A program made the translations under genes and the position numbers. From a virus (Duplodnaviria; Caudoviricetes): a stretch of DNA of 64,000 bases. Positions 7,817 to 29,807 of this stretch are shown one piece after another. The notes beneath the pieces were generated by a model that made no database searches, was not told where the DNA came from, and saw only the letters and a program-made list of their open reading frames with translations. The stretch lies in IMG/VR virus record IMGVR_UViG_3300029305_005484; one strand, given 5' to 3'. Each line of letters starts with the position of its first letter. Within the stretch, counting starts at the first letter, position 1.

Positions 7817-8203
7817 TTATTCAGTTCTTTCCCAGATATATACTGCTTTATATGGAGGCATATTATTATGTGGTTGATTTCCTCCTGTACCTGTTGAATA
7901 TTCGACATTATCAACTGCTTTATTTGAATTCGCTGTCCAAGAACCACCTGTTTCAGCTGATATCCAGTTCACACCCCAGTTCATTGTAAGAGCATGATTA
8001 TGAAGAGGCATTTCATTTACAGTTAATGTATGACTTGCTTCACCACCAATACTATTAACATCATAAGAGCCACCAGCACCAAGTAAAAATCTATCATCAA
8101 TTCTTATCCAAGTTATACCACCATATTCTTCAATAACCTTTTCCATAGTATCTAATGTTGTAGAGTGTATAACCATACCAACATGTGATCGGTTGCAGTT
8201 TTG
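7817..8203 (-). other. cassette 1: start-less T4 gp10 C-terminal-like tail/baseplate module
   Basis: Frame opens inside the repeat (TAA CAA AAC TGC AAC CGA TCA CAT GTT GGT ATG); HVGMVIHST..YGGITW..RFLLGAG..GGEASHTLTVNEMPLHNH..HNNMPPYKAVYIWERTE matches the YPVGSIY..GGTW..HNNLPPY..VY.W.R pattern; domain similarity begins before the Met at 8176, which has no RBS. Confidence 0.8.
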
Positions 8204-8274
8204 TTAAGTAAGTTTTCTGTAATCAAAGGAAATTACCGATAACTAGAGAAATTTAACTTAACAAAATTGGTTCC
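8191..8274 (-). repeat. 84-bp hairpin repeat, copy 1
   Basis: GGTTGCAGTTTTGTTAAGT...ACTTAACAAAATTGGTTCC; inverted arms TTTTGTTAAGT/ACTTAACAAAA. Confidence 0.97.
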
Positions 8275-8292
8275 CCAATAATTTTAATTATA

Positions 8293-8565
8293 TTAAGAAT
8301 CTATCTTTCCTTGTATTAGAATAAATTCTGCAGGATCATTAGAATTCCATACACTATCAAAATGTAAAACATATACTTCTTTTGTTTCATTAGTATGTTC
8401 TCTAGTTATACCTCTACATATCCAATGTGCATTAGAATAGCATATTGCAGCTAATAATGCATAACCATCTCTAATAGTTTGATATACATAATTTGCTCCA
8501 ATACCATCTAAAGTTACTTTATCTATATAAAATCTTTCTTGATTAGTTTGTTGGTTGCAGTTTTG
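8293..8565 (-). other. cassette 2: start-less coding module of about 90 aa
   Basis: Hand translation QNCNQQTNQERFYIDKVTLDGIGANYVYQTIRDGYALLAAICYSNAHWICRGITREHTNETKEVYVLHFDSVWNSNDPAEFILIQGKIDS*; no Met; same phase relative to the repeat as cassette 1. Confidence 0.75.
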
Positions 8566-8636
8566 TTAAGTAAGATTTCTGTAATCTTCGTAAATTACCG
8601 ATAACTAGAGAAAGTTAACTTAACAAAATTGGTTCC
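8553..8636 (-). repeat. 84-bp hairpin repeat, copy 2
   Basis: 78/84 identical to copy 1 by manual alignment, no indels. Confidence 0.97.
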
Positions 8637-8660
8637 TCTTTGTCCATTCACCAAGAAGAG

Positions 8661-8698
8661 AAATAAAGAGAAGTGATGCAGACACTTCTCTTTATTTT
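8661..8698. terminator. intrinsic terminator hairpin
   Basis: AAATAAAGAGAAGTG-N7-CACTTCTCTTTATTT. Confidence 0.8.
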
Positions 8699-8810
8699 CA
8701 CCATACATAAAAAATCTTTACTTTCAAAGGAGTCCAAATATGAAATCACAATCAAAACATGAATCCAAACTTGAAACGTTCTATTATATAAGATAATAGA
8801 TTAGTATTTT
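8661..8810 (-). ncRNA. candidate late small RNA
   Basis: AACA-TTGTAA-TA at 8821-8810 on the minus strand, terminator at 8698-8661, no convincing minus-strand ORF between. Confidence 0.35.
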
Positions 8811-8840
8811 ATTACAATGTTTATTACTAAAAATATTTAC

Positions 8841-8852
8841 GACAATATTTTA
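8841..8852 (+). promoter_or_regulatory. putative late promoter GACA-N6-TA
   Basis: GACAATATTTTA upstream of 8883. Confidence 0.55.
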
Positions 8853-8882
8853 ATTGAAACATGAAAGGTTGGTTATGTATAA

Positions 8883-9680
8883 ATGGCAACTAAAATGCGA
8901 AATAGAAGAAAAATACATTGCCAGTTTTGTGATACATATTTTTTAGATCCAGATGGATATGCTAAACACTTAGAAACAAAACATAAGGATTTTTTACCTG
9001 AAGGATTTTCAGGATGGAGATATTATTACTATCAAAAGACTGGTAAATTAAATGGAAAATGTGTCATTTGTGGACATGAAACTGAGTGGAATGAAACTAC
9101 TCATAAATATAATAGATTTTGTAACAATCCAAAATGTAAATGTAAATACAGAGAAGAATTCAAAAAAAGAATGATTGGAAAGTATGGTAAGGTTACATTA
9201 TTAAATGACCCAGAACAACAAAAGAAAATGCTTGCTAACAGAAGAATATCTGGAGAGCATATATGGAGTACAAATCCTAAAATTAAAATTCCATATACTG
9301 GAAGTTATGAAAGAGAATTCTTAGAATTTCTTGATTTGGATTTAAATTTCGACCCAGAAGATATTATTGCTCCATCACCTCATACATACTATTATGAATA
9401 CGAAGGTGCAAAACATTTTTATATTCCAGATTTCTTTATTCCATCTTTAGGTTTAGAAATAGAGATTAAAGATGGTGGTTCTAATCCTAATACGCATCAT
9501 AAAATTCAAGATGTTGATAAGGTCAAAGAACGATTAAAAGATGCAGTTATGAAATCAAATAAAAGTACATTTAGTTACTTAAAGATTGAAGATAAAAATC
9601 ATTTCAAATTTTTTCAATTTCTTTCTGTAGCTAAACAAAAATTTCAAAATGGTGAAGATACTAAAATCTTTATGCCATAG
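8883..9680 (+). CDS. Zn-finger plus PD-(D/E)XK (TnsA-like/head-completion-like) nuclease
   Basis: CxxC..HxxxxH, CxxC..CxxxxC, and YIPDFFIPSLGLEIEIK catalytic motif. Confidence 0.75.
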   Translation: MATKMRNRRKIHCQFCDTYFLDPDGYAKHLETKHKDFLPEGFSGWRYYYYQKTGKLNGKCVICGHETEWNETTHKYNRFCNNPKCKCKYREEFKKRMIGKYGKVTLLNDPEQQKKMLANRRISGEHIWSTNPKIKIPYTGSYEREFLEFLDLDLNFDPEDIIAPSPHTYYYEYEGAKHFYIPDFFIPSLGLEIEIKDGGSNPNTHHKIQDVDKVKERLKDAVMKSNKSTFSYLKIEDKNHFKFFQFLSVAKQKFQNGEDTKIFMP

Positions 9681-9692
9681 AAAGGAATAATA

Positions 9693-11009
9693 ATGGATCA
9701 AAGTATTTATACTGATTTAGTTAAAAAGATTAATTCATGTAATATAAATGATGAATCTAGAGCTAGATTACTTGGAAAATATTATGAATTATATGATACT
9801 CCAATTAGACATGCAATGTCTGTTGGATTATATGCTGATGGTCCTCAAGATGAATCAACACATCAAAAACTTAGAAATTTTTATGGAATTATTCCTAAGT
9901 TTAATGAAGCATATGAACTTGATACTAAGAAGACTATTCAGTACAAATGGTTTACAAATAGAGTTCTTAGATATGTTGATGGTGCTGTTGCTATAACACA
10001 TCCTCAATATTTCATATATGAATTTAAGAACTTCTTAAATTTTTTAACAATAAAGTCTGTATCTGATATTATAGAGACTTATAAAAGATCTTGCATTTTC
10101 TTAAAAGGATATGTTAATTATATCAAAAATACTCAAACAAATATCACTATTAATGAAGTAGCAAGATTTTTAATAAATGATGTTATTTATGAAGTTTTTG
10201 CTGCATGTACAGCATTATATAAGATTTGGAAAACAGAAGAAGAATTTGTGGTATATGATGATTTATTCCTTTTATTAGAAGGACTTGGAAAATGTATGTC
10301 ACAAAAAACAGATCCTTTTGATACATCTAAATCTTTTGCTAGAAATTTGTGTAATTTCTATAAAAACTATGGAATTCCTATGGATTTTATTTATGGAAAT
10401 AAAACTGGTATGGATCCATATTTCTGGCTTTATTTAAATTCAGGAAATGACATTTTAACTAAAGTTAGAGGATTTACATTTATACTTGCTACATATGTAA
10501 GTGGTGATATGGATGAAGCTGATACTATTATTCATTCATATACAGAAAGTGTATCACTAGAAAACTCCAATGTTACAGGTGAGGCACATAGAAATATTGC
10601 AGTATTTGGGAATAATTCTTTAGTAAATGAATTATCATCAAATGGTTTAAATTCATTTAAAATGGATTTAGAAAGATTTGATAAGGAGTTTATAAAAAAA
10701 TATATAGATAAACCAGAAACTGTAAAAATTAATTTCTTAATAGATGAGCAATTTAAAATGTATTTACAGGCTGAACTTGAATGTAAGATTGCTGTGGTAA
10801 ATCTTACAAAAGAAGATGAAATGATTATGTTTACAATTCTTCAATATGAAAATGATAACTTTGTATTATTTACAGTATCTGATGACCCTAATACATTATA
10901 TGGTTTGACACTTATTGAAGATTCTTCAACAAGAGAACGTAAACTCATTACAATTGATAGGGATGAGGATTTTTCATTTGAACTTAATGTAAATATCGAT
11001 AATGAATAA
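9693..11009 (+). CDS. hypothetical protein (late, possible head protein)
   Basis: 438-aa ORF, AAGGA RBS. Confidence 0.7.
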   Translation: MDQSIYTDLVKKINSCNINDESRARLLGKYYELYDTPIRHAMSVGLYADGPQDESTHQKLRNFYGIIPKFNEAYELDTKKTIQYKWFTNRVLRYVDGAVAITHPQYFIYEFKNFLNFLTIKSVSDIIETYKRSCIFLKGYVNYIKNTQTNITINEVARFLINDVIYEVFAACTALYKIWKTEEEFVVYDDLFLLLEGLGKCMSQKTDPFDTSKSFARNLCNFYKNYGIPMDFIYGNKTGMDPYFWLYLNSGNDILTKVRGFTFILATYVSGDMDEADTIIHSYTESVSLENSNVTGEAHRNIAVFGNNSLVNELSSNGLNSFKMDLERFDKEFIKKYIDKPETVKINFLIDEQFKMYLQAELECKIAVVNLTKEDEMIMFTILQYENDNFVLFTVSDDPNTLYGLTLIEDSSTRERKLITIDRDEDFSFELNVNIDNE

Positions 11010-11046
11010 AAAAGAAAGAGAAGTTTAGACTTCTCTTTCTTTTTTA
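11009..11046. terminator. bidirectional terminator
   Basis: AAAGAAAGAGAAGT-TTAG-ACTTCTCTTTCTTT. Confidence 0.8.
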
Positions 11047-11756
11047 ACTGTCACATGAATTATATCATCAACATATTTTATATCATCAGAATTATGTTTA
11101 AATTCGATAAATTCGTCAAATAATGTATTTAATTGATTACATATAACTTCGCAAACTTTAAATGTATTTGTGCTTAAGTCTTTATTAATTGATATTGCAA
11201 TATCAGCGCTAGACAAAGTTTTACGTCTTTTGTCATTAGATATGATTATATCGAATTCATGTATATCATTAAATATATTAATATATAAACTATTAAGGAT
11301 ATACTCTATAATATAATCTATATTTATAGTTCTATTATTTTTATTTTTTGATGGAAATAATAAAAATGTATTTATTCTATCAACAAGTAGCAATATTTGT
11401 TCTGACATTAAGATAGGATTTATTTTTATAAGAATAGAATCTTTCGTTCTATGTAAAGTTGACATTTCTAATCCTAACTCAAATAAAGAACCGTATACAT
11501 TTTCTATAATATTTGTACCATCACCTTCTTCACAATTACATACATGATAATCTAAATCTAATCCAGATCTATTACTACCATATTCTGATAAGAATCGATT
11601 ACACAGGTTTTTATTTTCCCATATTGTTACTGATATTATAAGTGGTGAACTTATATTAACAATATTTTTTGTAACTGCACTCGATATATGTATAGCATGT
11701 TTATACACATTTCCATCAAACTCTCTGATAATTAAATTTTCACTCATTTTATACAT
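11025..11756 (-). CDS. hypothetical protein
   Basis: 243-aa ORF, AAGGAG RBS. Confidence 0.75.
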   Translation of the reverse strand: MYKMSENLIIREFDGNVYKHAIHISSAVTKNIVNISSPLIISVTIWENKNLCNRFLSEYGSNRSGLDLDYHVCNCEEGDGTNIIENVYGSLFELGLEMSTLHRTKDSILIKINPILMSEQILLLVDRINTFLLFPSKNKNNRTINIDYIIEYILNSLYINIFNDIHEFDIIISNDKRRKTLSSADIAISINKDLSTNTFKVCEVICNQLNTLFDEFIEFKHNSDDIKYVDDIIHVTVKKEREV

Positions 11757-12510
11757 ATCTCCTTAAATCAATTTTATAAGTTTGAGAATCTAATTTTTCT
11801 TTATCAATCTCAAAATCAAATAATCTATATCTATTACATATAGTTTCTACAGCTGTTGTAAGATTATTTTCACTTGTATATACATGTATAGATTTTATCA
11901 TTAGTCCAAATTCTGTATGATCTGCAATTACCTTAGAAGAATCTGATGTAATTATTAAATTGGTCTGAAGTATACCATTTGATAAGTTTTTAAATATTTT
12001 CTTATTTATTTTCTGAAATACGCACTTATCAAATGATTCAGTTTGATCTGGAAATGCTAATGACATTTCAGAAAGTGATAATACATCAATATTTATAAGA
12101 TCACTTACGTTTAAGTCTGTATTTATAGGTATTGCAATTGATGATACATTAATTTTATCAGTATCAATCTCTTTTAAACTCATAGTTGTTATATTTGCTG
12201 ATGATGTATATTCATCAATCTTTTTAGTTATGTAATCAGAAATAGATTTTTGTTTTTCACCATCTCTACTAAAACCAATGACAAATATAGTACCGAATGA
12301 ATTTGGTTTTATTGTATCAATAATGAGTTCTTTATAATAATCTTCATCATAATCACAAGTTCCCAATTCATCTTTCAAACATACTATGTATATTTTTGGG
12401 TTATGAGTAAATGTCATTCTTACAGCAGTTTTAACACTGTAGTATATACTTTCATTTAATCTTTTTTCATTTTCTAAATCATGTTTACATGTAATCATTT
12501 CAAAATTCAT
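11749..12510 (-). CDS. hypothetical protein
   Basis: 253-aa ORF, AAGGAG RBS. Confidence 0.75.
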   Translation of the reverse strand: MNFEMITCKHDLENEKRLNESIYYSVKTAVRMTFTHNPKIYIVCLKDELGTCDYDEDYYKELIIDTIKPNSFGTIFVIGFSRDGEKQKSISDYITKKIDEYTSSANITTMSLKEIDTDKINVSSIAIPINTDLNVSDLINIDVLSLSEMSLAFPDQTESFDKCVFQKINKKIFKNLSNGILQTNLIITSDSSKVIADHTEFGLMIKSIHVYTSENNLTTAVETICNRYRLFDFEIDKEKLDSQTYKIDLRRYV

Positions 12511-12525
12511 ATTCTCATTCTCCTT

Positions 12526-13275
12526 TTATTCAACCACAATTTGTTTTCCAAGATATAATATACAATCTCTACCATCGATAATCCAATTAAATCCACTTAA
12601 GAATCCTAATAATTCATATCGTTTTCTTATTATATTTAACATATTTCTGACATTATCTGTAGAGATATATAATGCATTATGATTCCTTTCATAACTTTTA
12701 GCATCTATAATAGTTCTATTAGTTATCAATATACTAATTTCAGTAACTCCATCAGAACTACCTTTTACTAAAACTTTATCAATAGCATTCCATAATTTAA
12801 AATGATTATCGAATTCTTTTACTCTAATTATTGGAAAAGAATCTTTAAATAATCTATGAACATCTAATAATTTACTTTCTTTTATAATTATTGAACGAAA
12901 TTGATATTTCTTCATAAGTGTAACTTTTTCAACATCAAAATCAATATCAATACTTAATATATCTTTATATTCAGTAAATTCTTTTACAAAGTCATTATAT
13001 ATAGATACAATACCATCAAAATAATCATAATAATTTGGAATTATTATGATTTGATCTCCTATATGTATCGGTAGTGATTTATAAAATTCTTCAGTAATAT
13101 CTTCTTTTTTCAATGGATTATCCTTATCAATCATAAGAAAGAAATCTATTTTTACACTCCTTTTCTTTTCAGATGCTAAATAAATTAATGATTTAAATGT
13201 ATCAAAAATATATTTAGTTGGCTCCATTCTTGTTTCGGATGTCATTACATCAATATTAAGTTCTCGTTGTCCCAT
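12526..13275 (-). CDS. hypothetical protein (early)
   Basis: 249-aa ORF, GAGGAG RBS, AATATATTAT at 13311-13320. Confidence 0.75.
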   Translation of the reverse strand: MGQRELNIDVMTSETRMEPTKYIFDTFKSLIYLASEKKRSVKIDFFLMIDKDNPLKKEDITEEFYKSLPIHIGDQIIIIPNYYDYFDGIVSIYNDFVKEFTEYKDILSIDIDFDVEKVTLMKKYQFRSIIIKESKLLDVHRLFKDSFPIIRVKEFDNHFKLWNAIDKVLVKGSSDGVTEISILITNRTIIDAKSYERNHNALYISTDNVRNMLNIIRKRYELLGFLSGFNWIIDGRDCILYLGKQIVVE

Positions 13276-13390
13276 TATTTAGGTCTCCTCTCATATTTAT
13301 TCTCGTAAAAATAATATATTTTTTAAATATAGAATTAGTTATAATTTAAGGACATTTCTTTAAAAGACTTAAGAAAGGTTGGTAAATATT

Positions 13391-14641
13391 ATGAAAAAGA
13401 AACCTTTGAGTCATCCTGTAAAATATGTACAAATGATGCCATCAAGTGCACATATGTATGGTAATGCTGTAGCATTTATTCAAAAATGGTTAATAGATCA
13501 ATTTCCTAAAAAAGATAATGGAGATACTATTTTTAAGACTATAAATGTAAGTTCTAAAATTGCACATAGACAACTTAGAAGAACTAATAATGATATCAGT
13601 AAAAATAATAAACCTGCATTAATGATTCGACCAAGGGTTGATTTTAATGATGAAAGATTTTTACAGGGGACTCCTATTACAGATAGATTATTATATAATT
13701 CATATAATTATGGACCAGATGCTCTTCAACCATTCTTTTTTGATGATAGAAATCAGATTGCTATAAAGTATCAATTAAATAGAACTGTAATGTATGTCGA
13801 TGTAGTTTTAGTATTTTCATCATTGATGCAACAACTTAACTATGCTACATATTTAAAGAATAAAATACCTATGAATAGTCCGTTTGATTTGGATACTTGT
13901 TTTGAAAGTTTCTTATCAGTAGAAATGATGAATACAATTTCAGAATTATCTGGTGTTCCTATTGATACTAATGGTTCAGTGAAACCATTTTTAAATTATA
14001 TGAATCAACATAGTAATACTCCTGTAACATATAAGTTACAAGGAAGTACAAATAGTAATGAATTTTATAGATATCATCCGGTAAAAATCATTACAACCAT
14101 TCCTCAAATTGACATTGATGATGGTGAAAGAAATGGTCAAATAAATGATAATTATCAGATTAATTTCACAATAAGAATGGAATTTTATACAAATGGAATT
14201 TATTTCTTATTCTCTGATAAGATATTCAAAATTAAAAGACAACCGTTACCAGATGATTCTAGTATAATACCAGTATTTACAGATGTACTTTTAAGAGAAG
14301 ACTGGAATTTACAGACTGGTTGGATGCAATATAATAGAGCAACATGTCGTTTGACAAAAGAATATGATGATATTGAATTCTCTAAATTATTATCTCCTGC
14401 TATTATAACAGCAATAAAACATTATATAGAACGAGGTTATCTATTAAATGAAATTATTGATATTCGTATTAGAAGGCAAGGAGAATTAATCAGTTATGGA
14501 ATTGATTATGATGTAGATTTTGAAAATCTTACAATAAGATTTAAGAATAAAGATTTTGGATATTTTACTTATACAATAATGATTTGTATAAATCCAGAAG
14601 CAATTAATGAATTGATAAAACGAGAATTTAATTTGAAGTAA
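13391..14641 (+). CDS. putative virion structural protein
   Basis: About 416-aa ORF behind late promoter GACATTTCTTTA (13351-13362). Confidence 0.55.
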   Translation: MKKKPLSHPVKYVQMMPSSAHMYGNAVAFIQKWLIDQFPKKDNGDTIFKTINVSSKIAHRQLRRTNNDISKNNKPALMIRPRVDFNDERFLQGTPITDRLLYNSYNYGPDALQPFFFDDRNQIAIKYQLNRTVMYVDVVLVFSSLMQQLNYATYLKNKIPMNSPFDLDTCFESFLSVEMMNTISELSGVPIDTNGSVKPFLNYMNQHSNTPVTYKLQGSTNSNEFYRYHPVKIITTIPQIDIDDGERNGQINDNYQINFTIRMEFYTNGIYFLFSDKIFKIKRQPLPDDSSIIPVFTDVLLREDWNLQTGWMQYNRATCRLTKEYDDIEFSKLLSPAIITAIKHYIERGYLLNEIIDIRIRRQGELISYGIDYDVDFENLTIRFKNKDFGYFTYTIMICINPEAINELIKREFNLK

Positions 14642-14754
14642 ACAAGTATGTAAGCGTATCTGAGTGAAATTAGATATAGCTGCGTTAAAATACCAAATTA
14701 TTTAAAGGCATGATATTAAATATCAAAGTTTCTTAATAATTGTGTTCAATTCTT

Positions 14755-14794
14755 AAAATAGAAGGAGTTATCTGCAGATAACTCCTTCTATTTT
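14755..14794. terminator. perfect 40-bp palindrome, bidirectional terminator
   Basis: AAAATAGAAGGAGTTATCTG|CAGATAACTCCTTCTATTTT. Confidence 0.85.
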
Positions 14795-14800
14795 TGTCCC

Positions 14801-14980
14801 AATGATATGATTAATATATATCGTTATACGCTTATGAAATTAACACGATTAAGAGGTTCGATATAATGTCACAAATATCGAAAAAGTCTCAATGGAATTC
14901 ATTCAAAACAAAAAACATCCTATCACTCGCATGCCGAATATAAAAAACGACATTAGTATTTTAAGTTTAACCATATCATT
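14801..14980 (-). ncRNA. candidate structured ncRNA of about 180 nt
   Basis: Late promoter 14991-14980; 5' AAUGAUAUGGUUAA pairs with 3' UUAAUCAUAUCAUU; internal UUCGAUAU/AUAUCGAA hairpin; ends at the palindrome. Confidence 0.5.
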
Positions 14981-15052
14981 AAATTTTTGTTATATTGATA
15001 TTTATTTTAAATCCCACAATAATGTAATTAATTTGTAAAGGAGATTTAAAAT

Positions 15053-16390: not shown

Positions 16391-16393
16391 TAT

Positions 16394-16492
16394 ATGTCAG
16401 AAACAAAACAATTAAATATTACAATGCAAATGTCAATTACTTCAGAAGAAACAACTGAAGAAATTGATAAAGAAATAGTTGAAGAGGAGTAA
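16394..16492 (+). CDS. small acidic protein (32 aa)
   Basis: MSETKQLNITMQMSITSEETTEEIDKEIVEEE*, GGGGTG RBS; not in the ORF track. Confidence 0.5.
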   Translation: MSETKQLNITMQMSITSEETTEEIDKEIVEEE

Positions 16493-16495
16493 TTT

Positions 16496-16645
16496 ATGGA
16501 TAATAAAGAATTACATGAAACTATTAAAATTGATGTGGATAATATTGAAAATAGAGTTAATGGAAAAGTTATGGAAGTTGATTTTGCAGATATTTTTCCA
16601 TCAGATTCAGGTATCTCATTTGAAGTTGTTAGTGAAGAAAAATAA
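16496..16645 (+). CDS. small acidic protein (49 aa)
   Basis: MDNKELHETIKIDVD...SEEK*, GAGGAG RBS; not in the ORF track. Confidence 0.6.
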   Translation: MDNKELHETIKIDVDNIENRVNGKVMEVDFADIFPSDSGISFEVVSEEK

Positions 16646-16648
16646 AAA

Positions 16649-16684
16649 AATAAGACTAGTAGAAATTCTACTAGTCTTATTTTA
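16649..16684. terminator. bidirectional terminator
   Basis: AATAAGACTAGTAGAA-A-TTCTACTAGTCTTATT. Confidence 0.8.
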
Positions 16685-20910: not shown

Positions 20911-20978
20911 GTTTTAAATCCCCTTTCTTTTAATACCTCATGAAACACATTGTTACTGCATTTCATGAGGAATAATAG

Positions 20979-22661
20979 TTAAATAGTTCTTAAGAAAAAT
21001 CCAAGTTCGTCTGTAATTGAATTCTTTTCTACGTTAATTTCGGTTCCATAAATATCTGGATTTTCATAACAGCAATATGTAAATACAGTATTATTAATAG
21101 TGGATAAAATACTCATAATTGAGTCTTTATCAATCTCTTCCAAATATTTATACTTATTATGAAGTAAGTCATCGATAATGTAACTTTCTTCACAATCTTC
21201 TTTGAACTTCGCATTTCTGATTAAACGCGTATTAATTTTCTCTTTAATGTTTCCAGTTAAAATATACGGAAGTGCAACTCTATCAGTAAACACATTCGTA
21301 TTGTCAAAACCAGATTCACGTAAAATTCTTTTCTTAAGAATTAATGCAAGTCTAATAAAGTTGTCTCTAGAAATACCTAATGTATTTCTAAATGAACCTA
21401 AATTTCCTGCAAATAAAGATGTTATTAACATTTGATGAAGTGGTTGAATATTAAAGTGTTTCTTATAATAATCAAGTTCATCATCTGTAATTTCAAATCC
21501 ATATTCATTAATTAGTCTTTCAACTTCATCTGTTACAGATTCTTTTGCGATAATAATACTTCCCTCATCAAGTTTTTCAAGTTGCATTTCCATTTTATCA
21601 ACACCTGATAAACCGTCTGCATTTCTTGCATATGTGAGTTCTGTGAACCCTTTACTATGTTGCTCTTTAATGAAATACATGAGTTGATATTTTATTATTG
21701 TCTTGATAAACCCAGTGATATTCTCTTTGTATTTCTTTGCATTTTCATCCCAGTTCTCATTAAACTTGAATTTTACTAAATTTTCACTAATTAGTACAAC
21801 TCTAGTGAAACGATGAATTACTGAAAATTCATCAATACCAAGAATCTCTCTTTGAGCATACATCTTATCATTATTACTTTTATTCTCCATTACCTTCGCT
21901 TTTACATAGACAAACAACTTGTTATACATATTGCATGTATCACTAAATATGTCGAATAAACCTTTAAATGCATTGAATAGATGAGGAGTTGTTTTATTTA
22001 CAATAATTTTATTTTTTGCCAAATAATGGAAAATTACTGGACTCATCATCTTAATACCAAAACTAATCTTTAACAAAGTTTTGATATGTTCATTTGTAAA
22101 CTCTAAAGATTCTAAATGTTTCTTTTCTTTTGTGATGTATTTCTTAGAGCCTTCATCAGACTCAATATCATCAAGATAATTATCATCAACTAACTGATGG
22201 ATTTTTCTGATTATTGACGGTGTAAACATAACTTCATAGATATGGTCTATGAATTGTCCTAGTTGTGCTTCACCTGTAAAATAAATTTCTCCATCTTCAT
22301 TATCGGTAACAAACTTAAGATGAAGATAAGCTGTCAATAGTTCATGTTCTTTATCATATGCATGAATAAAGAAATTAACATATCTACAGATAACTGGTAG
22401 TTGATTCGAATATGAATCTTTTCTAATCGTAAATTCATGATATCCTGCCAAACTCTTAATACCAAAAATCTTATGAAATTCAATATAACATTTTTGTGGC
22501 TCATATGTTAAATATCGCTCTTCATCAGTTTCTACCCATTCATTAATAGGCGCCTTAAGAGTGGACCTGTCAATCACTGGTTTTGAAACAACTTGTTCAC
22601 CATCTTCAGTTGTTTCTAAAACTTCGGATTCTTCCATTTCAATTTTCTTTCTTCGTCCCAT
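20979..22661 (-). CDS. candidate nvRNAP promoter-specificity (sigma-like) subunit, AR9 gp226/phiKZ gp68-like
   Basis: 560-aa early gene (AATATATTAT at 22698-22707) two genes from the chaperonin, mirroring AR9 gp226-gp227-gp228; inferred from position only. Confidence 0.45.
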   Translation of the reverse strand: MGRRKKIEMEESEVLETTEDGEQVVSKPVIDRSTLKAPINEWVETDEERYLTYEPQKCYIEFHKIFGIKSLAGYHEFTIRKDSYSNQLPVICRYVNFFIHAYDKEHELLTAYLHLKFVTDNEDGEIYFTGEAQLGQFIDHIYEVMFTPSIIRKIHQLVDDNYLDDIESDEGSKKYITKEKKHLESLEFTNEHIKTLLKISFGIKMMSPVIFHYLAKNKIIVNKTTPHLFNAFKGLFDIFSDTCNMYNKLFVYVKAKVMENKSNNDKMYAQREILGIDEFSVIHRFTRVVLISENLVKFKFNENWDENAKKYKENITGFIKTIIKYQLMYFIKEQHSKGFTELTYARNADGLSGVDKMEMQLEKLDEGSIIIAKESVTDEVERLINEYGFEITDDELDYYKKHFNIQPLHQMLITSLFAGNLGSFRNTLGISRDNFIRLALILKKRILRESGFDNTNVFTDRVALPYILTGNIKEKINTRLIRNAKFKEDCEESYIIDDLLHNKYKYLEEIDKDSIMSILSTINNTVFTYCCYENPDIYGTEINVEKNSITDELGFFLRTI

Positions 22662-22733
22662 TTCAAATCTCCTTTATATATTTTTACCTCCAAACAAATA
22701 ATATATTCATATGATAAAAAACCAATAAAATAT

Positions 22734-23561
22734 TTATCTTTTAGTGGTACTTCTTTTAGCTACAACCTTTTTCTTTTTAGATATTCCAGTTGTTTTTGGT
22801 TTTACTGGATTATGATAATCTGATAATGTAGAACGTGTAGGAGATTTTATATTTGTTTTTGTTGGCATTCGTTTTTGTACATCACCTATAATCCTTTTAA
22901 CACTTTTTTCTACTAATGACCTATCAACTCTTCCTTCTTCTCTCGCTTTCTTTTCAACATCATAAGATGTTGATTTCATAGAATCCTCAGTAGTTAATAC
23001 TGAATCTACTAAATCTCTGAATTGTAATTTTCTTGTGTATCTAAGAGCTGATTTAGATAGATAAGTTAATCGGTTATCATATAAAAACTTTGTAGCAAAA
23101 TATATAGATTTGTCGTACATAAGTTCCATGTTTTTGTTAGCTTGCTCTGGGAGGGTATCTGCATATTCAGGATTTAACTTCTCTTGAAGAGCATCTATCA
23201 TGTAACCATGTAATTTGTATAATGCTGCATATTTATACACAAAACTAGGGCTATTTGAAAAGAATTGAATTACATAAAAATCTAATGTGTGTTCTTTAAC
23301 CATAGTATCAGTTTTTGGCATGAATTGTATTACAACATCATATGTTTTTCCTGGTTGTGATTCAGATGGAACTTTAACGTGAATATAATAAGATTCATCC
23401 AAAATGGAATATCCTACTACTTTAATAAGAGATTTAAACTTTTCATATTTTGGATTAAGTTTTTCTCCTACATCAGTAATAGATACTCCAAATGGATGAA
23501 CTAAAAAATCACTTAAAGTTTGATATACTGGATCTCCAACATGTAATAGGTTCTTATCCAT
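22734..23561 (-). CDS. hypothetical protein with basic C-terminus
   Basis: 275-aa ORF, GAGG RBS. Confidence 0.75.
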   Translation of the reverse strand: MDKNLLHVGDPVYQTLSDFLVHPFGVSITDVGEKLNPKYEKFKSLIKVVGYSILDESYYIHVKVPSESQPGKTYDVVIQFMPKTDTMVKEHTLDFYVIQFFSNSPSFVYKYAALYKLHGYMIDALQEKLNPEYADTLPEQANKNMELMYDKSIYFATKFLYDNRLTYLSKSALRYTRKLQFRDLVDSVLTTEDSMKSTSYDVEKKAREEGRVDRSLVEKSVKRIIGDVQKRMPTKTNIKSPTRSTLSDYHNPVKPKTTGISKKKKVVAKRSTTKR

Positions 23562-23585
23562 TTCTCAAACCTCACTTTATTTCAA

Positions 23586-25691
23586 TTAATAATTTCCTCT
23601 TGTAATCACTAATTGATTTCCTGTTGTTAATAAACTTACTAAGTCTGATGATGCAATTAAGATTTCTCTATCTGTAGCAGCACTATTAATTACTCTTCTA
23701 TTGAAAGCGATTGTAGGTACTGTACTTTCACTCATATCCAAATCAAGAGTTGTACCTGAATACAACTCAATCTCATTGATAAGTGTGAATAAATCAGTTT
23801 CTGGATTATCACGATATGTGACTTTCAGATAACTCATGAAATCATTAATATATGAAATGTCTTCTTGGAAAATTACTCGAACTCCAATGTTTTCGGAAAT
23901 ACATCCAAGAATATCACCCATTACATCTTCACTAGAAGTGTATAAATTTTCTTTAGCAATGATATTTGACAAGTCGATTTTCTTATTACTAAATCCGTTT
24001 TCAAGAACACAAAATCTCACATGTCTAAATGCTTTAAACATAACTTCCAGTAAGAATTTATCTGCATCTGATCTTTCAGGACAATCTATCTCATCCCTAA
24101 TAGCGTTTAATAAAGTGGTATGTCCACCATTGATAACACCATTTCTGTATGCAGACAAAGCTGCTTTTACAGCATCATCCATAGCATCAACTAAGAATTG
24201 CTGTTTGAAATCTGTTGATGCACCAACTTCGATTTGTCCCATTTTAAGTTTCAAACTTAGATATCTCTTTTGAGCATCATCTACTTCAAAGTTAAATGTA
24301 CCAAGTTTGCTGTACTTTTCGATAACAGCATCAAGTTCAACTTTAGCATCGTTTACATATTTCTCATACAATGATTCATCATAATCAAAATCTCTAAAGA
24401 TAGATTCTTTATCATAATGAAGCATAACTTCACCGGTATATCCGATTCTGAATGAGAATTCTTCATCAAGAGGAACAACTCCAATTTCACCAGCATCTGC
24501 ATTTTTTAATACATATGGAACTTGTGCATGGGAGTTAGAATTTTTAGCCATAATCATATTACCTTCAATTTTTCGGTTATCAAGATTGATATACTGAAGA
24601 AGGTTTGATACATCTGATTTAGTATCAACAAGGTCTTTCGTTCTCTTAATGATTTCATATTCAATAGACTGAGTTATAAGTTGTGTATTACAAAGCATTG
24701 CCAAGTCACTAACACGTTTCTTATCTGAATTACGAGAATTTCTATATCCCATAATTACAAGATTGATATCTTTTGTCTGTCTATATTCAGAATTTAAATC
24801 ATTAAGAATGTCACCTTGAAGTGTTACCTCATCATAATTAGGTGCAATACAAATAAGTTTTCTTCCTCTCATCTTGCATAAAACTGAAAGAGGTGCCAAA
24901 ATATATTTGTATGAATTAAGGCTAACTTTATGATCAAATATAACAACATCACATTTTTGTGCATGTAATGATTGGTTGTCATTATTTACATAGATTCTGT
25001 CCATAAGTTTTGCATGGAACATGAATCCGTCAACAACTCTTCCTTTTGTCACACCATCTGCAGCTTTAACTACACTAATTGCTGGATATCCAATTTGTCT
25101 GTATAAATCAACAATTATGTCTGTAAGTTCTTTATCTGCATTTGATGATACATATACTACTTGTCTTATATATTCACACATTTCTTCAAGAGGTAAACTC
25201 TTAATATCTGTGGCATATAAACTAAGACGTTTATTAACATCTTCAACAAGTTCTTTTGTTCGATTAAGAACGTTTCTAGGTAAGAAAAATAACTTATTAA
25301 TCTTATCTGAATTTTTCTTAAATTCTTGATACATTGCATTTGCAGAAACTACAGCACTAGTAGTTCCATCACCTACTGCAAAATTAAGTCTTCCACAGAT
25401 ATCTGCAATCATTCCGGAAATGACTTGGTCAACGTATCCATATTGTGAATTGTAACGAATATTTTTCATGATAGTAAAACCATCTTTCGTTACATGGTAA
25501 CCAGGTGGTTGTGAAATAATAGCATGTGCACCAACTGGTCCTAAAGATTTTTGTAATGTACTAGCTATCTGGTCAAACACAGATGAAATTCTAGAATCCA
25601 TTACATCCTTTGATATGACATTAATCTCTGGGTCAAATGCTACAATAGACTGAGCAAATGTCATATCTTTTTTCTTTTTACCTTTTGACAT
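23586..25691 (-). CDS. groEL: GroEL-like phage chaperonin
   Basis: SLGPVG, VTKDG, GDGTTSA, DDAVKAA..GVINGG motifs; late promoter at 25722-25733. Confidence 0.9.
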   Translation of the reverse strand: MSKGKKKKDMTFAQSIVAFDPEINVISKDVMDSRISSVFDQIASTLQKSLGPVGAHAIISQPPGYHVTKDGFTIMKNIRYNSQYGYVDQVISGMIADICGRLNFAVGDGTTSAVVSANAMYQEFKKNSDKINKLFFLPRNVLNRTKELVEDVNKRLSLYATDIKSLPLEEMCEYIRQVVYVSSNADKELTDIIVDLYRQIGYPAISVVKAADGVTKGRVVDGFMFHAKLMDRIYVNNDNQSLHAQKCDVVIFDHKVSLNSYKYILAPLSVLCKMRGRKLICIAPNYDEVTLQGDILNDLNSEYRQTKDINLVIMGYRNSRNSDKKRVSDLAMLCNTQLITQSIEYEIIKRTKDLVDTKSDVSNLLQYINLDNRKIEGNMIMAKNSNSHAQVPYVLKNADAGEIGVVPLDEEFSFRIGYTGEVMLHYDKESIFRDFDYDESLYEKYVNDAKVELDAVIEKYSKLGTFNFEVDDAQKRYLSLKLKMGQIEVGASTDFKQQFLVDAMDDAVKAALSAYRNGVINGGHTTLLNAIRDEIDCPERSDADKFLLEVMFKAFRHVRFCVLENGFSNKKIDLSNIIAKENLYTSSEDVMGDILGCISENIGVRVIFQEDISYINDFMSYLKVTYRDNPETDLFTLINEIELYSGTTLDLDMSESTVPTIAFNRRVINSAATDREILIASSDLVSLLTTGNQLVITRGNY

Positions 25692-25749
25692 ATTCTGTTC
25701 TCCTTATATCAAATTTTTATTTAAAGTGGTGTTTTTAAAGATATTAGAA

Positions 25750-26469
25750 TCAAGCGATTCTAAATGTTGCCCACTTAAATGTATGCTTAGTTGATAAATA
25801 TTTCATATCTATCAAAAAAGTATCTTTTTTATCATCAGTGAAATTATATCTATAATTCACTGGTAATAATACTGATGAAAAATCCAGTTTTCCTAATTCT
25901 TCTAATATTAGTACATTCATCACGTCTGAAAAGAAATAAGTTGTATCAGAAGGAATTGTTTTTAAAACATCTCTGATATCACCTGTTACTAATTTTACAG
26001 AATTTCCAAATTTTTTCTCAATATCATTTTTAACAAATTCATTTTCTTCAGGATAATAAATTACTACTTCTTTTACTAATGACATAGCAAGTAGATTATT
26101 TATAATAGGAACTACTAATGTATCAACATCTGAATTGAAAAATATTTCTTCAGAATTTACTAAGTTATTGAGTAAATTATCTAAAGTTTCAATTTCAATA
26201 GTTTCTTTATCCTTTAATAAATCAACCAATGGATTCCTATATTTTCTTTCTAAATAAAAATCAAAAAGTGATTGTGGTGATAAATATTTTATAACGTCAG
26301 TATTAAATAAATCATACACACTTTCATTATTTCTAAAAAAAGAAAGAAATGTAAACCATTGTAATTGAATAGTATCTGTATATTCAACAAATACACATGT
26401 TGAATTTTGAAATAATCTGCTAGATGATCTAAATCTGACATTATTATCAAATTTCATAGGTTCTTTCAT
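25750..26469 (-). CDS. hypothetical protein
   Basis: 239-aa ORF, GAGGTG RBS. Confidence 0.75.
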   Translation of the reverse strand: MKEPMKFDNNVRFRSSSRLFQNSTCVFVEYTDTIQLQWFTFLSFFRNNESVYDLFNTDVIKYLSPQSLFDFYLERKYRNPLVDLLKDKETIEIETLDNLLNNLVNSEEIFFNSDVDTLVVPIINNLLAMSLVKEVVIYYPEENEFVKNDIEKKFGNSVKLVTGDIRDVLKTIPSDTTYFFSDVMNVLILEELGKLDFSSVLLPVNYRYNFTDDKKDTFLIDMKYLSTKHTFKWATFRIA

Positions 26470-26491
26470 TTAATTCACCTCAAAAATAAAA

Positions 26492-26524
26492 GATGGGAAT
26501 AAGATTTAAATCTTATTCCCATTC
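26492..26524 (-). terminator. intrinsic terminator
   Basis: ATGGGAATAAGATTT/AAATCTTATTCCCAT palindrome. Confidence 0.75.
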
Positions 26525-26527
26525 ATT

Positions 26528-27352
26528 TTATGAAAATGGTAGTTCGTCATTTTGTCCTGGAGCTGGGAAATCAAAGAATCCACCTGTTGCTCCACTACCA
26601 CTACTGTAAGAATTTTGTGGTGCAGCGAAATTCATTCCTTGTGTTTGACCACCATATTGGTTGCCATTTGAGTTACTTTGGTATGAGTTTCCACTGTTAT
26701 TCTGAAATGATTTTCCTCTTTCAGAATGGAATTTTCTTACATGTTCTGAGTAAGGTAATAATAATTGATTGCTTGTAAGCATATTCAGGAATGAATTGAA
26801 GTCTGCATTCGCATGAATAGTTTTGTTAGATAATCCTGTATTAGGATTATAATCCAACATTACTACACGTTTATCAAACTTATGTTTGAATGTGCTTGCT
26901 GGAGAAGCAATATTATTACTATCTACCATACCATAATAAACGAAATAAAGATCTGGTGTTTCTCCACCATCTGATGCTGGTGTCATTTCGAAACCTACAA
27001 CATTTCGTTTAGGTTCACGACCTGTTTCGACTGTAACACTCAAAAGTTCTGGACAAGGTTCTCCATTAAGAACTACTCTGTCATAAACTGGTTTGATCAC
27101 TGTTCTGAATTGTTCTACTAAAGCTTCACAAGCTTCGATTGTTAATGCTGTTTTTCCTTGACGATTTTGGTCATATTGCATTACTCCATTTCCGTCCACT
27201 CCAATTGCTGGACTAATTGTAATGCTGTAACTTTGGTTCCATAATGATAGTGCCATAGATGAAACATCTGAATTGAATGTTTTAAATCTAGTATTTACAC
27301 TAACACCATTGTTTTGTTGTGTGTTCATTCTATTTGAGTTATTTCCCCACAT
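26528..27352 (-). CDS. putative single-stranded DNA-binding protein
   Basis: G/N/Q/S-rich linker ending in the SSB-like tip NDELPFS; early promoter at 27392-27399. Confidence 0.6.
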   Translation of the reverse strand: MWGNNSNRMNTQQNNGVSVNTRFKTFNSDVSSMALSLWNQSYSITISPAIGVDGNGVMQYDQNRQGKTALTIEACEALVEQFRTVIKPVYDRVVLNGEPCPELLSVTVETGREPKRNVVGFEMTPASDGGETPDLYFVYYGMVDSNNIASPASTFKHKFDKRVVMLDYNPNTGLSNKTIHANADFNSFLNMLTSNQLLLPYSEHVRKFHSERGKSFQNNSGNSYQSNSNGNQYGGQTQGMNFAAPQNSYSSGSGATGGFFDFPAPGQNDELPFS

Positions 27353-27412
27353 ATGGTTTTACCAATCCTTTCTAAGTATATATTCATATTTATAATATAT
27401 CAAATAAATTAA

Positions 27413-28168
27413 TTATTCGATAATTTCACGGGGTAACAGAGGATTTTCCTCTCGGTACTTCTTTAAAATTCGATTTCTTATTTCTCCTTCGATTTTGATT
27501 CTCATAGGAATGCGAATCATATTACAATATTTTTCGGTAAAATTACCAGTTAAAATAAAATCTTCATAATATTCTGCGACCAATGTCAATTCAGTTAACG
27601 GTTCATCGCCTTCACATAATCGTAAGAAATCATCAACATCTAACTTTACATCATGGACTATATAATTCATAATGTCTGATAAGTTAGCTAAAATAGTAGC
27701 ATCGTCTTCATCAATTTCTTTTTTAAAAGCTTGAGTTGTTATGTCTTTTCTTCGAGTTGCATTTTCGATAAAGAACTCTTTATTTTCGTTAATGTAATTA
27801 TAGAATAGATTGAAGAAGTTATTCTTCATATTAATAATAAAGAAACGATATGTGAAATGAATCAAATCTTGTTGTTCTTCTCTACTCATTTCTTTTAAAT
27901 TATTAATACCTATTCCCAATCGATTCATAAGTGTCTCTTCCATGAAATCAATAAAATTATCATGATAGGACAGTAACGTATCGTTCTCATCATCATCTTC
28001 AACTAATTCTTTAGAATAATTATATTGATTTATGAATGATGAGATGTAATCCATTCTAAAGTTATCTGGATTACCAAATTGCATTAATATGTTTTGCTCT
28101 AATAAACCCACAGGAACTTGTGATAAGAAAGTACTATCTTCATTATTAAAAACATTTGTAATACTCAA
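27413..28168 (-). CDS. hypothetical protein
   Basis: 251 aa, TTG start, GAGG RBS. Confidence 0.7.
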   Translation of the reverse strand: MSITNVFNNEDSTFLSQVPVGLLEQNILMQFGNPDNFRMDYISSFINQYNYSKELVEDDDENDTLLSYHDNFIDFMEETLMNRLGIGINNLKEMSREEQQDLIHFTYRFFIINMKNNFFNLFYNYINENKEFFIENATRRKDITTQAFKKEIDEDDATILANLSDIMNYIVHDVKLDVDDFLRLCEGDEPLTELTLVAEYYEDFILTGNFTEKYCNMIRIPMRIKIEGEIRNRILKKYREENPLLPREIIE

Positions 28169-28241
28169 AATTTTTCAACCTCTCTTTTTTATTTATTTTG
28201 GTTTTTGAAATATTTCCGAGTATTTTTGACCTTCATTCTTA

Positions 28242-28586
28242 TTAGGTATTTTTATTATCTTTCCTTAATGCATCGTTCATAGCAATTTCGTTATGAGGAT
28301 TAATTTTAGGATCGATATGATTTAATTCGTGGAAATTTTTTACAAAATTCTCTGAATCTTCAATTGTGATTAAATTCCTATTTCCAGATATTAAGTGTGT
28401 TAACACTCTTGCAGAATGCGCAAAAATTTCAACATGTCCACATTGGTTACATGCTACAACTTTAATAGCTTCTTCAAGTTTTGTATCTGTAGAACTTTTT
28501 GGAATAAATCCAGATGATATATTTTTATCTTTTGATCCACAGAATTTGCATTTCCATCTATGTAATCTTTCAGCTGATACTAACAT
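28242..28586 (-). CDS. Zn-ribbon protein
   Basis: CKFCGS...CNQCGH. Confidence 0.7.
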   Translation of the reverse strand: MLVSAERLHRWKCKFCGSKDKNISSGFIPKSSTDTKLEEAIKVVACNQCGHVEIFAHSARVLTHLISGNRNLITIEDSENFVKNFHELNHIDPKINPHNEIAMNDALRKDNKNT

Positions 28587-28681
28587 ATAGTATACCTCAC
28601 TTTCTAATCATCAATTTTCCTATGATTTAATGAAGTGTAGTTTTTTAAATTATAAATAATATGAGCAGAGTAGATAAAAAT

Positions 28682-29326
28682 CTACTCTGCTAAATTTGTT
28701 CGTTTTAAAACTTCTAAACGATATTTTTGATTTACATTAGGATATTTATCTCTATCAACAAGTTCAAAAAACATTGATTGTGGTCTTGCAAATGTTTCAA
28801 ATGGATAATATAATGCTTGATATATTATAAGCATCTCTCCAGTTTCTGTGTGTTTAGCAATATCTGTAACTCTATATAGATATTTATTTTGTAAAACTTC
28901 ATCATCCTTTATCAGTTCTTGTTTAAAATGCTTTATAATATCACCAATTTGAATTCTCGGTTGATCGTATTTCATAGTATCTATATTTTTATCACTAATA
29001 ATAATACCATTTCCATTAATATTATTAAGACCATATGACATATGACCTATATTATCGTATTGATTTTTATATAGGTTAAAAAATAAATCACTATAATCCA
29101 AATCTGGAAAGTTATATTTTATTATAGATACTGATTCTTTAATAGTATCTTCATTAACATCTTTCTTTTTTGTAGTTTTTTCCAAAACCTTTTTCCAATC
29201 AATACTATTTAATATAACTTTAGGACATGCGGTATAATCACATTCTAAATCTTTTAATATACTTTCCCAATCAATTTCTTGATGTTGTGATTGTACAATT
29301 TGTTCCATAATCATTCTCCTTATCAA
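28682..29326 (-). CDS. DUF1653-domain protein
   Basis: IKHFK..YRV..IAKHTETGEMLIIYQALY..FARPQSMF. Confidence 0.8.
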   Translation of the reverse strand: MIRRMIMEQIVQSQHQEIDWESILKDLECDYTACPKVILNSIDWKKVLEKTTKKKDVNEDTIKESVSIIKYNFPDLDYSDLFFNLYKNQYDNIGHMSYGLNNINGNGIIISDKNIDTMKYDQPRIQIGDIIKHFKQELIKDDEVLQNKYLYRVTDIAKHTETGEMLIIYQALYYPFETFARPQSMFFELVDRDKYPNVNQKYRLEVLKRTNLAE

Positions 29327-29361
29327 TAAATTTTATTAATAAGTTAAATTATATATAAAAA

Positions 29362-29736
29362 CTAACTATTTGAAATATATGTACAGTCATATGTAAATAA
29401 TACATACTTCTCCCCTATGTCAAGACCCAAAGATATAATATTATATGTTCTATCATAAGATACATGTGTAGGGTATACATCTCCTGTAGTTGTATCACAA
29501 ACAAGAAGTGTTCCAAATTGACTAGATAAATGAGTGTTAATTGGATGCCATGGTAATGCTAGAATAGATGTTCCTTTAGCTCTAGCTGATAACCAACCTC
29601 TAACTTTTACAGTACAAACTCTTCCATATTTATAGCAAACACTTTCCCCTATAGTACAATTCCATGCTGTACAATTTCCACTAACAACTTCTAAGTTTGG
29701 AATTTTTCCTTCTAATTCTTCTTGATTGCAGTTTTG
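29362..29736 (-). other. cassette 3: start-less tail-fibre tip-like module of about 124 aa
   Basis: Hand translation QNCNQEELEGKIPNLEVVSGNCTAWNCTIGESVCYKYGRVCTVKVRGWLSARAKGTSILALPWHPINTHLSSQFGTLLVCDTTTGDVYPTHVSYDRTYNIISLGLDIGEKYVLFTYDCTYISNS*; no Met; YKYGRVCTV and LPWHP resemble the Y-K-x-G-x-V-x-V...LP..RP pattern of fibre C-terminal heads. Confidence 0.78.
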
Positions 29737-29807
29737 TTAAGTAAGATTTCTGTAATCAAAGGAAATTATCGATAGATAGAGAAAGTTAACTTAACAAAAT
29801 TGGTTCA
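29724..29807 (-). repeat. 84-bp hairpin repeat, copy 3
   Basis: 77/84 identical to copy 1 by manual alignment, about 21 kb from copies 1 and 2. Confidence 0.97.

Follow-up and report, generated by a model that had tools for sequence, protein, structure and literature searches.

How can an open reading frame (ORF) that lacks a start codon be of use to the virus that carries it? This question is raised by a stretch of 64,000 nucleotides (nt) from a virus of the class Caudoviricetes (IMG/VR record IMGVR_UViG_3300029305_005484). In this stretch, which is hereafter called the window, three copies of a palindromic element of ~80-87 bp are each followed, on the minus strand, by such a start-less ORF. 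The explanation that we favour, with a probability of roughly three in four, is that the three units serve as silent donors in a DNA-level system that switches the tip of one tail-fibre gene in an AR9/PBS1-like jumbo phage. The source phage of the window is a jumbo phage of low GC content (~28%), it carries an endonuclease of the AR9/PBS1 type and a large gene similar to RNA polymerase beta, and matching DNA is present in faecal, bovine gut and sheep gut metagenomes; the affiliation to AR9 and PBS1 and an origin in the ruminant gut are part of the same explanation.

The element and the cassettes behind it

The number and common orientation of the elements had been noted in an earlier, sequence-only reading of the window. 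Both are confirmed by a repeat search, which finds one family with three copies on the minus strand, and by a 32-nt pattern of the element, which has exactly 3 matches, again on the minus strand, against 0.00 expected (100 shuffles). Copy 1, characterized by repeat and pattern searches, alignment and folding, occupies positions 8193..8279 (8193-8272 when counted from CTGCAA to AACCAA, in plus-strand coordinates). Copy 2 (8555..8641; 8555-8634 from CTGCAA to AACCAA) is the head of a tandem element-cassette-element-cassette array and is divergent from an endonuclease gene that begins at 8883, while copy 3 (29726..29812; 29726-29805 from CTGCAA to AACCAA) is divergent from a gene at 29857. Copies 2 and 3 are situated in divergent intergenic regions and, therefore, no upstream ORF can read into them.

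In minus-strand order, the element is built up of a G-rich tract, AACCAA, a left arm, an inter-arm stretch of 46 nt, a right arm and CTGCAAY. Alignment of the three copies reveals that the arms are invariant (left TTTTGTTAAGT, right ACTTAACAAAA) and that the inter-arm stretch has a fixed length, invariant edges and a variable middle. Folding of the three copies as hairpins gives z values of -4.9, -4.2 and -2.3. The in-frame stop that had been ascribed to the element exists, and stops are in fact present in all three sense frames. At its right-hand end lies the core motif, the putative crossover site, which reads AAACTGCAAC in copy 1 (8192..8201) and copy 2 (8554..8563) and AAACTGCAAT in copy 3 (29725..29734), in each case on the minus strand. 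When read on the opposite strand, the left arm appears as ACTTAACAAAA-TTGGTTC and the right arm as ACTTAACAAAA-CTGCAAC; the same 11-nt arm thus borders two different 7-nt central regions. From this juxtaposition of one arm with two central regions, we infer that each element may contain two heterospecific sites.

Two contigs from two other samples (L036:1-60 and L038:1-60) end inside element copy 2, when compared with window positions 8570-8630, and the centre of this copy contains two positions at which they depart from the window. These differences may have been left by exchange or conversion between elements. The exact element pattern has 0 matches in public viral contig and genome contig collections, and the phage collection that was searched contains neither a close relative of the window's phage nor a similar element.

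Behind each element, an ORF opens in one and the same phase, TAA followed by CAA AAC TGC AAY. Cassette 1 (7817..8203, minus strand) is a start-less tip module of 128 codons and a stop; cassette 2 (8293..8565, minus strand) and cassette 3 (29361..29736, minus strand) have 90 and 124 codons, respectively, each with a stop. Translation confirms these lengths and the identical phase, as well as the scarcity of methionine that had been pointed out: cassettes 2 and 3 are Met-free, and cassette 1 has an internal Met at codon 10 without a Shine-Dalgarno (SD) sequence as ribosome-binding site (RBS). The resemblance to C-terminal domains of tail and baseplate proteins, claimed for cassettes 1 and 3, can be maintained for the former only. 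Cassette 1 has a Gp10_C-like C-terminal tail/baseplate domain (Pfam PF21939, 7.2e-9) and matches PHROG tail proteins exclusively at their C-termini, but cassette 3 has no detectable similarity to any tail domain. For cassettes 2 and 3, no family match was found in Pfam or PHROG, ESM Atlas feature searches gave no family, and the AlphaFold2 models, which are all-beta with a mean pLDDT (predicted local distance difference test score) of 53, are unusable. Orthologs in relatives share 74% amino acid (aa) identity with cassette 1 (L009) and 47-48% with cassette 3 (L005), with ratios of nonsynonymous to synonymous substitution (dN/dS) of 0.32 and 0.41. All of the contigs around the gene neighbouring cassette 3 (22/22) keep the window arrangement.

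The family to which these cassettes belong is best seen in a related phage that is available as three contigs of one assembly, JAEIGA01 (88, 145 and 36 kb; ~270 kb in total). A scan of metagenome contigs with the two arms yielded 26 exact-arm copies of the element in this phage, to which a profile search added two variant copies and one left-arm remnant. In the window's phage, the element unitigs have a depth of ~305 versus ~9.4 for the baseline and the flanks, which suggests ~30 element copies per genome. The original count of three therefore holds for the window but not for the genome. Likewise, the cassettes are co-oriented locally in the window, whereas those of the JAEIGA01 phage are dispersed over its three contigs in both orientations. 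The sequence-only reading had advised counting further copies, with random-phase DNA behind them as the outcome that would speak against cassettes. Instead, every complete copy is followed by an in-phase ORF, mostly of 98-145 codons, the exceptions being one of 59 codons, one of 218 codons and one frameshifted pseudogene. In DNA this AT-rich, such regular in-phase ORFs are not due to chance.

The 43 distinct cassettes fall into 23 BLASTP families. Orthologous cassettes have dN/dS values of 0.18-0.41, in agreement with the selection that had been presumed from the length of the frames, and the core is conserved at synonymous positions in >40 cassettes. Many cassettes open with N-Q-E/Q-E/D-L/M and show synonymous variation in this part; the protein is therefore constrained from the junction onward. 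No conserved motif was found at the 3' side of the cassettes. Two aberrant copies are worth recording. One (L012:1420-1907, minus strand) is decayed, with a core mutated to AAAAGTGCAA and a frameshifted cassette, and the other (L001:4420-4806, minus strand) is a variant with the tail AAAATTCTATC, behind which an ORF of 105 codons is still open.

The acceptor gene and the exchange of tips at its core

To which gene could such cassettes belong? A search in all six frames for long ORFs that contain the junction peptide identified an acceptor gene of 499 aa in a relative (L010:65-1564, minus strand). This gene has its own RBS (AGGAGG) and ATG, and its product reads ...LLQNQIDEL-NCN-QQEML..., the corresponding nucleotides being GAG CTA AAC TGC AAC CAA. 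The core is in frame at codons 382-384 and no hairpin precedes it. An acceptor locus with AAACTGCAAC in frame, for which the sequence-only reading had recommended a search, is thus present in a relative. Homologues of the N-terminal part carry tail-fibre Pfam domains such as Phage_fiber_2, Gp53-like_C, Phage_fiber_rpt and H_lectin, and in one arrangement the acceptor gene adjoins a tail-tube gene. A remnant of the left arm lies ~130 nt upstream of the ATG of the L010 acceptor.

Such a left-arm remnant exists upstream of every acceptor gene examined (L010:1690-1749, minus strand; L013:3611-3680, plus strand; L043:~1010-1050, plus strand). It is made up of a G tract, AACCAATTTTGTTAAGT, then AAAATAAACAAAAAC and a second TTTTTTGTTAAGT. 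The AACA-N6-TT motif in the remnant resembles the late-promoter consensus of AR9.

One might suppose that the cassettes act as small genes in their own right, with translation from an unconventional start being controlled by the structured leader, and that fused forms are by-products. Element copies 2 and 3 indeed head minus-strand units, and a G-rich, SD-like tract is found 8 nt before the invariant TTG of the left arm. However, this TTG opens a 3-codon ORF in another frame, and a near-cognate start in phase is absent. Furthermore, the similarity of cassette 1 is confined to the C-termini of long tail proteins, and the protein conservation (NQEEL, NQQEM) begins at the junction, where it continues the acceptor's own sequence. 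We give this supposition next to no credence.

Close homologues of the acceptor are 91-98% identical over the first ~380 residues, followed by complete divergence. At the nucleotide level, four strains have 96.2-99.4% identity over 1,300 nt up to CTAAACTGCAAC and ~30% after it. Five different tips have been found on near-identical N-terminal parts, and four of them are silent cassettes in other genomes. The expressed tip P0007 corresponds to silent cassette L006 of the JAEIGA phage (91% aa identity), P0005 to silent cassette L004 of the same phage (83%), and P0006 to a silent cassette in L013 (99%), which immediately precedes the acceptor of the P0007 strain. The expressed tip of contig L030 is identical to cassette 2 of the window (100% aa identity). 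For the fifth tip, that of the JAEIGA acceptor itself, no silent cassette match was found among the sequences compared. Downstream of the P0007 tip, the synteny is that of the former flank of the cassette, and breaks in synteny between strains fall at elements.

L030 is a k141 assembly contig from another sample of the same study, and it contains both sides of such a junction. Its nt 1-1360 are 100% identical to the P0007-type acceptor locus (L013) and its nt 1350-9409 are 100% identical to window positions 8563-504, without a single mismatch over 8,060 nt. At the core, the two parts have 11 nt in common (AAACTGCAACC), at the position of the core motif of copy 2, and the product is a fibre of 464 aa that ends in cassette 2 (...QIDELNCNQQTNQERFYIDK...GKIDS, followed by a stop). 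Judged from the sequences on both sides, the exchange that gave rise to L030 took place within the core motif of copy 2. An assembler chimera is implausible because the stretch common to acceptor and donors is no more than 11 nt long, much shorter than the k-mers of assemblers. The remaining fusions were found in independent assemblies (JGI, ENA, NCBI and Logan), and 13 contigs contain the P0007 form. Taken together, the acceptor, the five tips and L030 bear out the proposal of a constant N-terminal gene to which exchangeable C-terminal modules are fused, with the junction inside CAAAACTGCAAYC. In the Logan data, unitigs are interrupted at the elements. Apparent joints in the read mapping, from 8276 to 8548, were rejected: their sides measure <=33 nt and they reflect cross-mapping between repeats.

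The existence of fused genes as DNA, in independent assemblies, also bears on the idea that joining occurs at the RNA or translation level and leaves the DNA unchanged. The element would then represent the 3' part of a trans-splicing intron or of a ribozyme, or else a signal for a gene-60-like bypass with TGT-TAA as take-off site and TGC as landing site. Some features are compatible with this: a conserved hairpin lies just before each ORF, and the TGT-TAA pair and TGC are 66 nt apart in the same frame, with an SD-like G tract upstream. Besides the DNA-level fusions, several other findings oppose it. An Rfam scan of the whole window at gathering thresholds gave 0 matches, and k-mer and TTGGTTCC searches of the window for a complementary RNA partner or a second acceptor-like site returned chance matches only, and no complementary 5' partner was found. 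Upstream of many copies, neither a start in frame nor an ORF is present, and one variant copy lacks CTG and has nevertheless kept its ORF. Joining at the RNA or translation level is therefore extremely improbable. The bypass or mini-ORF idea was also tried by itself and abandoned, the upstream in-frame starts being inconsistent.

The core does not seem to be the only point at which homology changes. A look-up of a 53-aa ORF internal to tip K retrieved 14 contigs with K in its silent form. On either side, the contigs L044 (100% over 10.3 kb) and L049 are 99.9-100% identical to L013, the form with the acceptor, and between these matching parts a plain element replaces a module of 1,279 nt that comprises the remnant, the promoter and the N-terminal codons. 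The boundaries of this replacement are the left arm GGGGAACCAATTTTGTTAAGT and the core, and the interior of the replacing element measures 51 bp. The interior allele of element copy 3 also occurs between two cassettes at this 'empty' acceptor site (form B: L044, L049). In two further comparisons, homology switches at the left arm. These alignments suggest that crossovers take place at the left arm as well.

A distant lineage displays the same architecture, with an acceptor, P0010, in L043:1222-2961 (plus strand) and a silent cassette in L039:2640-3160 (minus strand). Here as well, a left-arm remnant is found upstream of the fibre gene, the core is in frame, and the donors lie behind a palindrome. 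The arms are TTAGTTAGCTAAAT, the core is TAAATAGTA and the junction reads TLNSN, and there is a perfect inner hairpin of 12 bp. The conservation of the architecture while the site sequences differ argues for a dedicated site-and-enzyme system, and this lineage fits a co-evolution of site and enzyme.

A possible mechanism and a candidate recombinase

If the three units are donors for a fibre gene, as we propose, the gene itself would be located outside the window. Its constant module would consist of a promoter, an RBS and ~380 N-terminal codons and would end in the in-frame core AAACTGCAAY, while a donor would be a start-less ORF that opens with the same core behind a palindromic element of ~80 bp. 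The stops in all frames of the element would block translation arriving from upstream. Conservative recombination in the core would attach a new tip to the constant module and leave the old tip behind an element; as far as sequences can tell, this joining step is shown by the genome comparison. The constant module would be bounded by the left arm of an element and by the core, with crossovers at the left arm too, and paired exchanges at both arms could move it to any cassette with no net genome rearrangement. L030 would then represent the single-crossover state. The arms, that is, ACTTAACAAAA beside a 7-nt central region, are the predicted binding sites of the recombinase. The expected outcome would be a phage population with fibres that each have one of ~30 very different receptor-binding tips. 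The full scheme of a programmed, genome-wide exchange, with ~30 dispersed two-site donors, a promoter and N-terminal module moved by paired crossovers, an attI/attC-like logic and an Xer-type enzyme, is put forward tentatively, at somewhat less than even odds.

Which enzyme could catalyse these exchanges? A motif scan of 180 ORFs gave a sole match, a tyrosine recombinase in a related genome (L011:6150-7175, minus strand). It has the Pfam domains Phage_integrase (2.5e-37) and Phage_int_SAM_4 and passes the NCBIfam model NF040815 (XerA type) with 242.6 bits versus a cut-off of 220, and its best solved relatives are XerC-like, XerD and XerA proteins. An identical protein is encoded on five contigs, one of them of 205 kb. 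The closest homologues have 68-78% identity and are found on contigs of up to ~82 kb; the 78% homologue has a syntenic neighbourhood and belongs to a related phage. In related genomes, the recombinase gene is located 15-30 kb from the acceptor. The window itself contains no recombinase, according to a motif scan and a Pfam search of its ORFs, and no serine recombinase was detected in the motif scan of the 180 ORFs or in the Pfam searches of the window ORFs. This conserved XerA-type tyrosine recombinase is the candidate, and a likely one, for the catalyst of the exchange.

The chemistry could also be integron-like, with a single-strand hairpin (attC-like) recombining with a hairpin-less core (attI-like), and with excised circles instead of inversion. 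Palindromes are found at the donor sites but not at the acceptor, the cassettes have neither a promoter nor a start codon, units of element and cassette occur in tandem arrays, and an indel of one element plus a cassette is found after tip K. Moreover, the acceptor is immediately preceded by a cassette in direct orientation, a placement expected after integration of a circle, and the best NCBIfam model of the recombinase is named 'tyrosine recombinase/integron integrase'. Nevertheless, the protein fails the integron-integrase models TIGR02249 (92.9 bits, cut-off 265) and NF011946 (52.8 bits, cut-off 435). The element stands 5' of the cassette, is conserved in sequence and not in structure only, and shows no covariation. 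In L030, the left flank is kept and 8 kb of right flank are changed, which resembles the result of a single crossover between distant loci. We therefore regard integron-like chemistry as rather unlikely, at about one chance in four.

Alternatively, no dedicated enzyme would be involved at all: rare general or microhomology recombination among co-infecting strains, followed by selection on host range, could produce the fusions, the repeats acting as hot-spots. The alternative arrangements all derive from different samples, and cassettes have also been swapped between conserved flanks (L014 versus L004), as in ordinary homologous recombination, for which the 80-bp elements are long enough when it takes place between donors. 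Yet the acceptor and the donors have only 11 nt in common, and the five independent fusions are exact and in frame. The core is conserved at synonymous positions, and the start-less, phase-locked cassettes under purifying selection imply regular use. The diverged lineage with its other site sequences and the presence of a conserved tyrosine recombinase point in the same direction. An enzyme-free origin is consequently improbable.

A number of observations nonetheless weigh against donor cassettes with site-specific exchange. No recombination was seen within one sample; the arrangements differ between samples. No reciprocal product of the L030 event was recovered, the contigs L036 and L038 stopping inside element 2. 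The fusion of cassette 2 occurs in only 1 of the 23 contigs that carry cassette 1, and switching may therefore be rare. No fused form of cassette 1 was seen, and a search for longer homologues that would represent a fused form of cassette 3 came back empty. In the element, 0 of 20 pairs show covariation, a result that says nothing for or against the hairpin: because the arms are invariant, covariation does not distinguish a hairpin from duplex DNA. Finally, the recombinase gene is not adjacent to the sites and is known from related genomes and not from the exact strain of the window; its family is common in chromosomes of Clostridia, and it could serve another role.

Relation to known systems and neighbouring genes

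How does this arrangement relate to known systems of variation? In the R64 shufflon, the tyrosine recombinase Rci and its sfx sites serve to place several PilV C-terminal segments on one constant gene. The sfx sites have one conserved arm and a 7-bp core, while the other arm is non-conserved, a layout that resembles the arm-plus-CTGCAAY found here. In contrast, the R64 system is clustered in a 2-kb locus beside rci, has sites of 19 bp and four segments, operates by inversion only, concerns a pilus adhesin and lacks a long palindrome. The vsa/HvsR and vpma/Xer1 systems of Mycoplasma have one expression site, consisting of a promoter and a 5' coding end, and many silent genes without 5' ends, whose joining, in a fixed phase and at short sites, is the work of an Xer-like tyrosine recombinase. 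They differ from the present case in that they concern surface lipoproteins, form a single locus with fewer genes and use sites of 21-34 bp without a two-armed element.

With integrons (IntI, attI x attC), the cassettes share the combination of a hairpin donor with a simple acceptor, promoterless tandem cassettes and a recombinase of the Xer/IntI group. They are unlike integrons in the position of the element, which is 5' of the cassette and conserved in sequence, in the in-frame fusions inside a gene, in the dispersal of the cassettes and in the failed IntI model. As in the Gin, Cin and Min systems (Mu, P1 and p15B), alternative C-termini of a tail fibre, and with them host range, would be selected by DNA rearrangement; those systems, however, depend on serine invertases and an enhancer, and their two to six segments belong to a single locus. 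A diversity-generating retroelement (DGR) had already been discounted, and justly so: the repeat search of the window revealed no pair of template and variable repeats, and there is no reverse transcriptase among the ORFs scanned. A DGR is also disfavoured by the cassettes themselves, which are unrelated sequences of 23 families and not mutated copies.

The sequence-only reading had placed the cassettes outside the shufflon concept. This does not stand, given the XerA-type tyrosine recombinase in related genomes and the fact that tyrosine-recombinase shufflons of receptor-binding proteins (RBPs) have already been described (PMC6109161). In the Rin shufflon of Bifidobacterium prophages, a constant Rc gene and dissimilar variable Rv genes encode the RBP; 3-5 Rv genes are flanked by rin in one compact locus, 11-bp asymmetric rix sites are located at the junctions, the enzyme is a predicted tyrosine recombinase, and the variants were found by genome comparison (Mavrich et al. 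2018, PMC6109161). The present system is likewise phage-encoded and combines a constant gene, dissimilar C-termini, a short site at the junction and a predicted tyrosine recombinase. It differs from Rin, which belongs to temperate siphophages, in that it resides in an AR9-like jumbo phage, with ~30 cassettes over >100 kb in both orientations and a recombinase 15-30 kb away. Furthermore, its donors have a two-armed palindrome of ~80 bp that is absent from the acceptor, and its constant module is apparently mobile. As in a shufflon, a constant N-terminal part is joined in DNA to alternative C-terminal segments, and a short crossover site is conserved in phase (AAACTGCAAY in all copies and acceptors); the clustering of segments in one invertible locus beside the recombinase is replaced by dispersed cassettes. 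Functionally, it can thus be regarded as a shufflon in an unusual dispersed form, with Rin as its closest relative.

Full-text literature searches retrieved no paper that links jumbo phages with shufflons and none on silent receptor-binding cassettes like these. To our knowledge, the known switches of RBPs (Gin, Cin, Min, Rin and DGRs) each have one compact locus with a handful of alternatives or point variants. If our reading is true, a jumbo phage of the virulent type would possess ~30 sequence-unrelated tips, kept silent throughout its genome, for one fibre gene and with a site of 11 bases. Provided that exchange is frequent, this would account for the ability of such phages to deal with a diverse or changing set of hosts in the rumen and gut, as well as for the scrambled genome order of close strains at the elements. 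Under the same proviso, the short site, the one recombinase and the in-frame junction would form a natural modular scaffold for the study of host range and for its retargeting in laboratory systems of phage and bacterium. The cassettes also call for caution in annotation, since dozens of real coding modules without a start codon are missed or truncated by gene callers.

Some neighbouring genes of the window may finally be mentioned. The endonuclease gene that is divergent from element copy 2 (8883-9680, plus strand) has ~70% nucleotide identity to the 'endonuclease fused to N-terminal Zn finger' of the Bacillus phages AR9 and PBS1 and of Staphylococcus jumbo phages. The multisubunit RNA polymerase beta-like gene (30725-35581, plus strand) encodes 1618 aa and has a GTG start. 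An ORF with HNH_3, NUMOD4 and HTH_Tnp_1 domains (42940-43758, minus strand) is homing endonuclease-like, and an 86-bp stretch at its 3' end (42907-42992) is 84% identical to an annotated 'promoter' region of the Yersinia jumbo phage phiR1-37. A 1341-aa ORF (55734-59759, plus strand) contains tandem repeats of 216 nt (72 aa) with a recurring GDGTW motif, and its product is probably a repetitive virion or surface protein. A Cpn60/TCP1-like protein of 701 aa is encoded at 23586-25691 (minus strand), and a DUF1653 protein at 28682-29326 (minus strand), immediately downstream of cassette 3.

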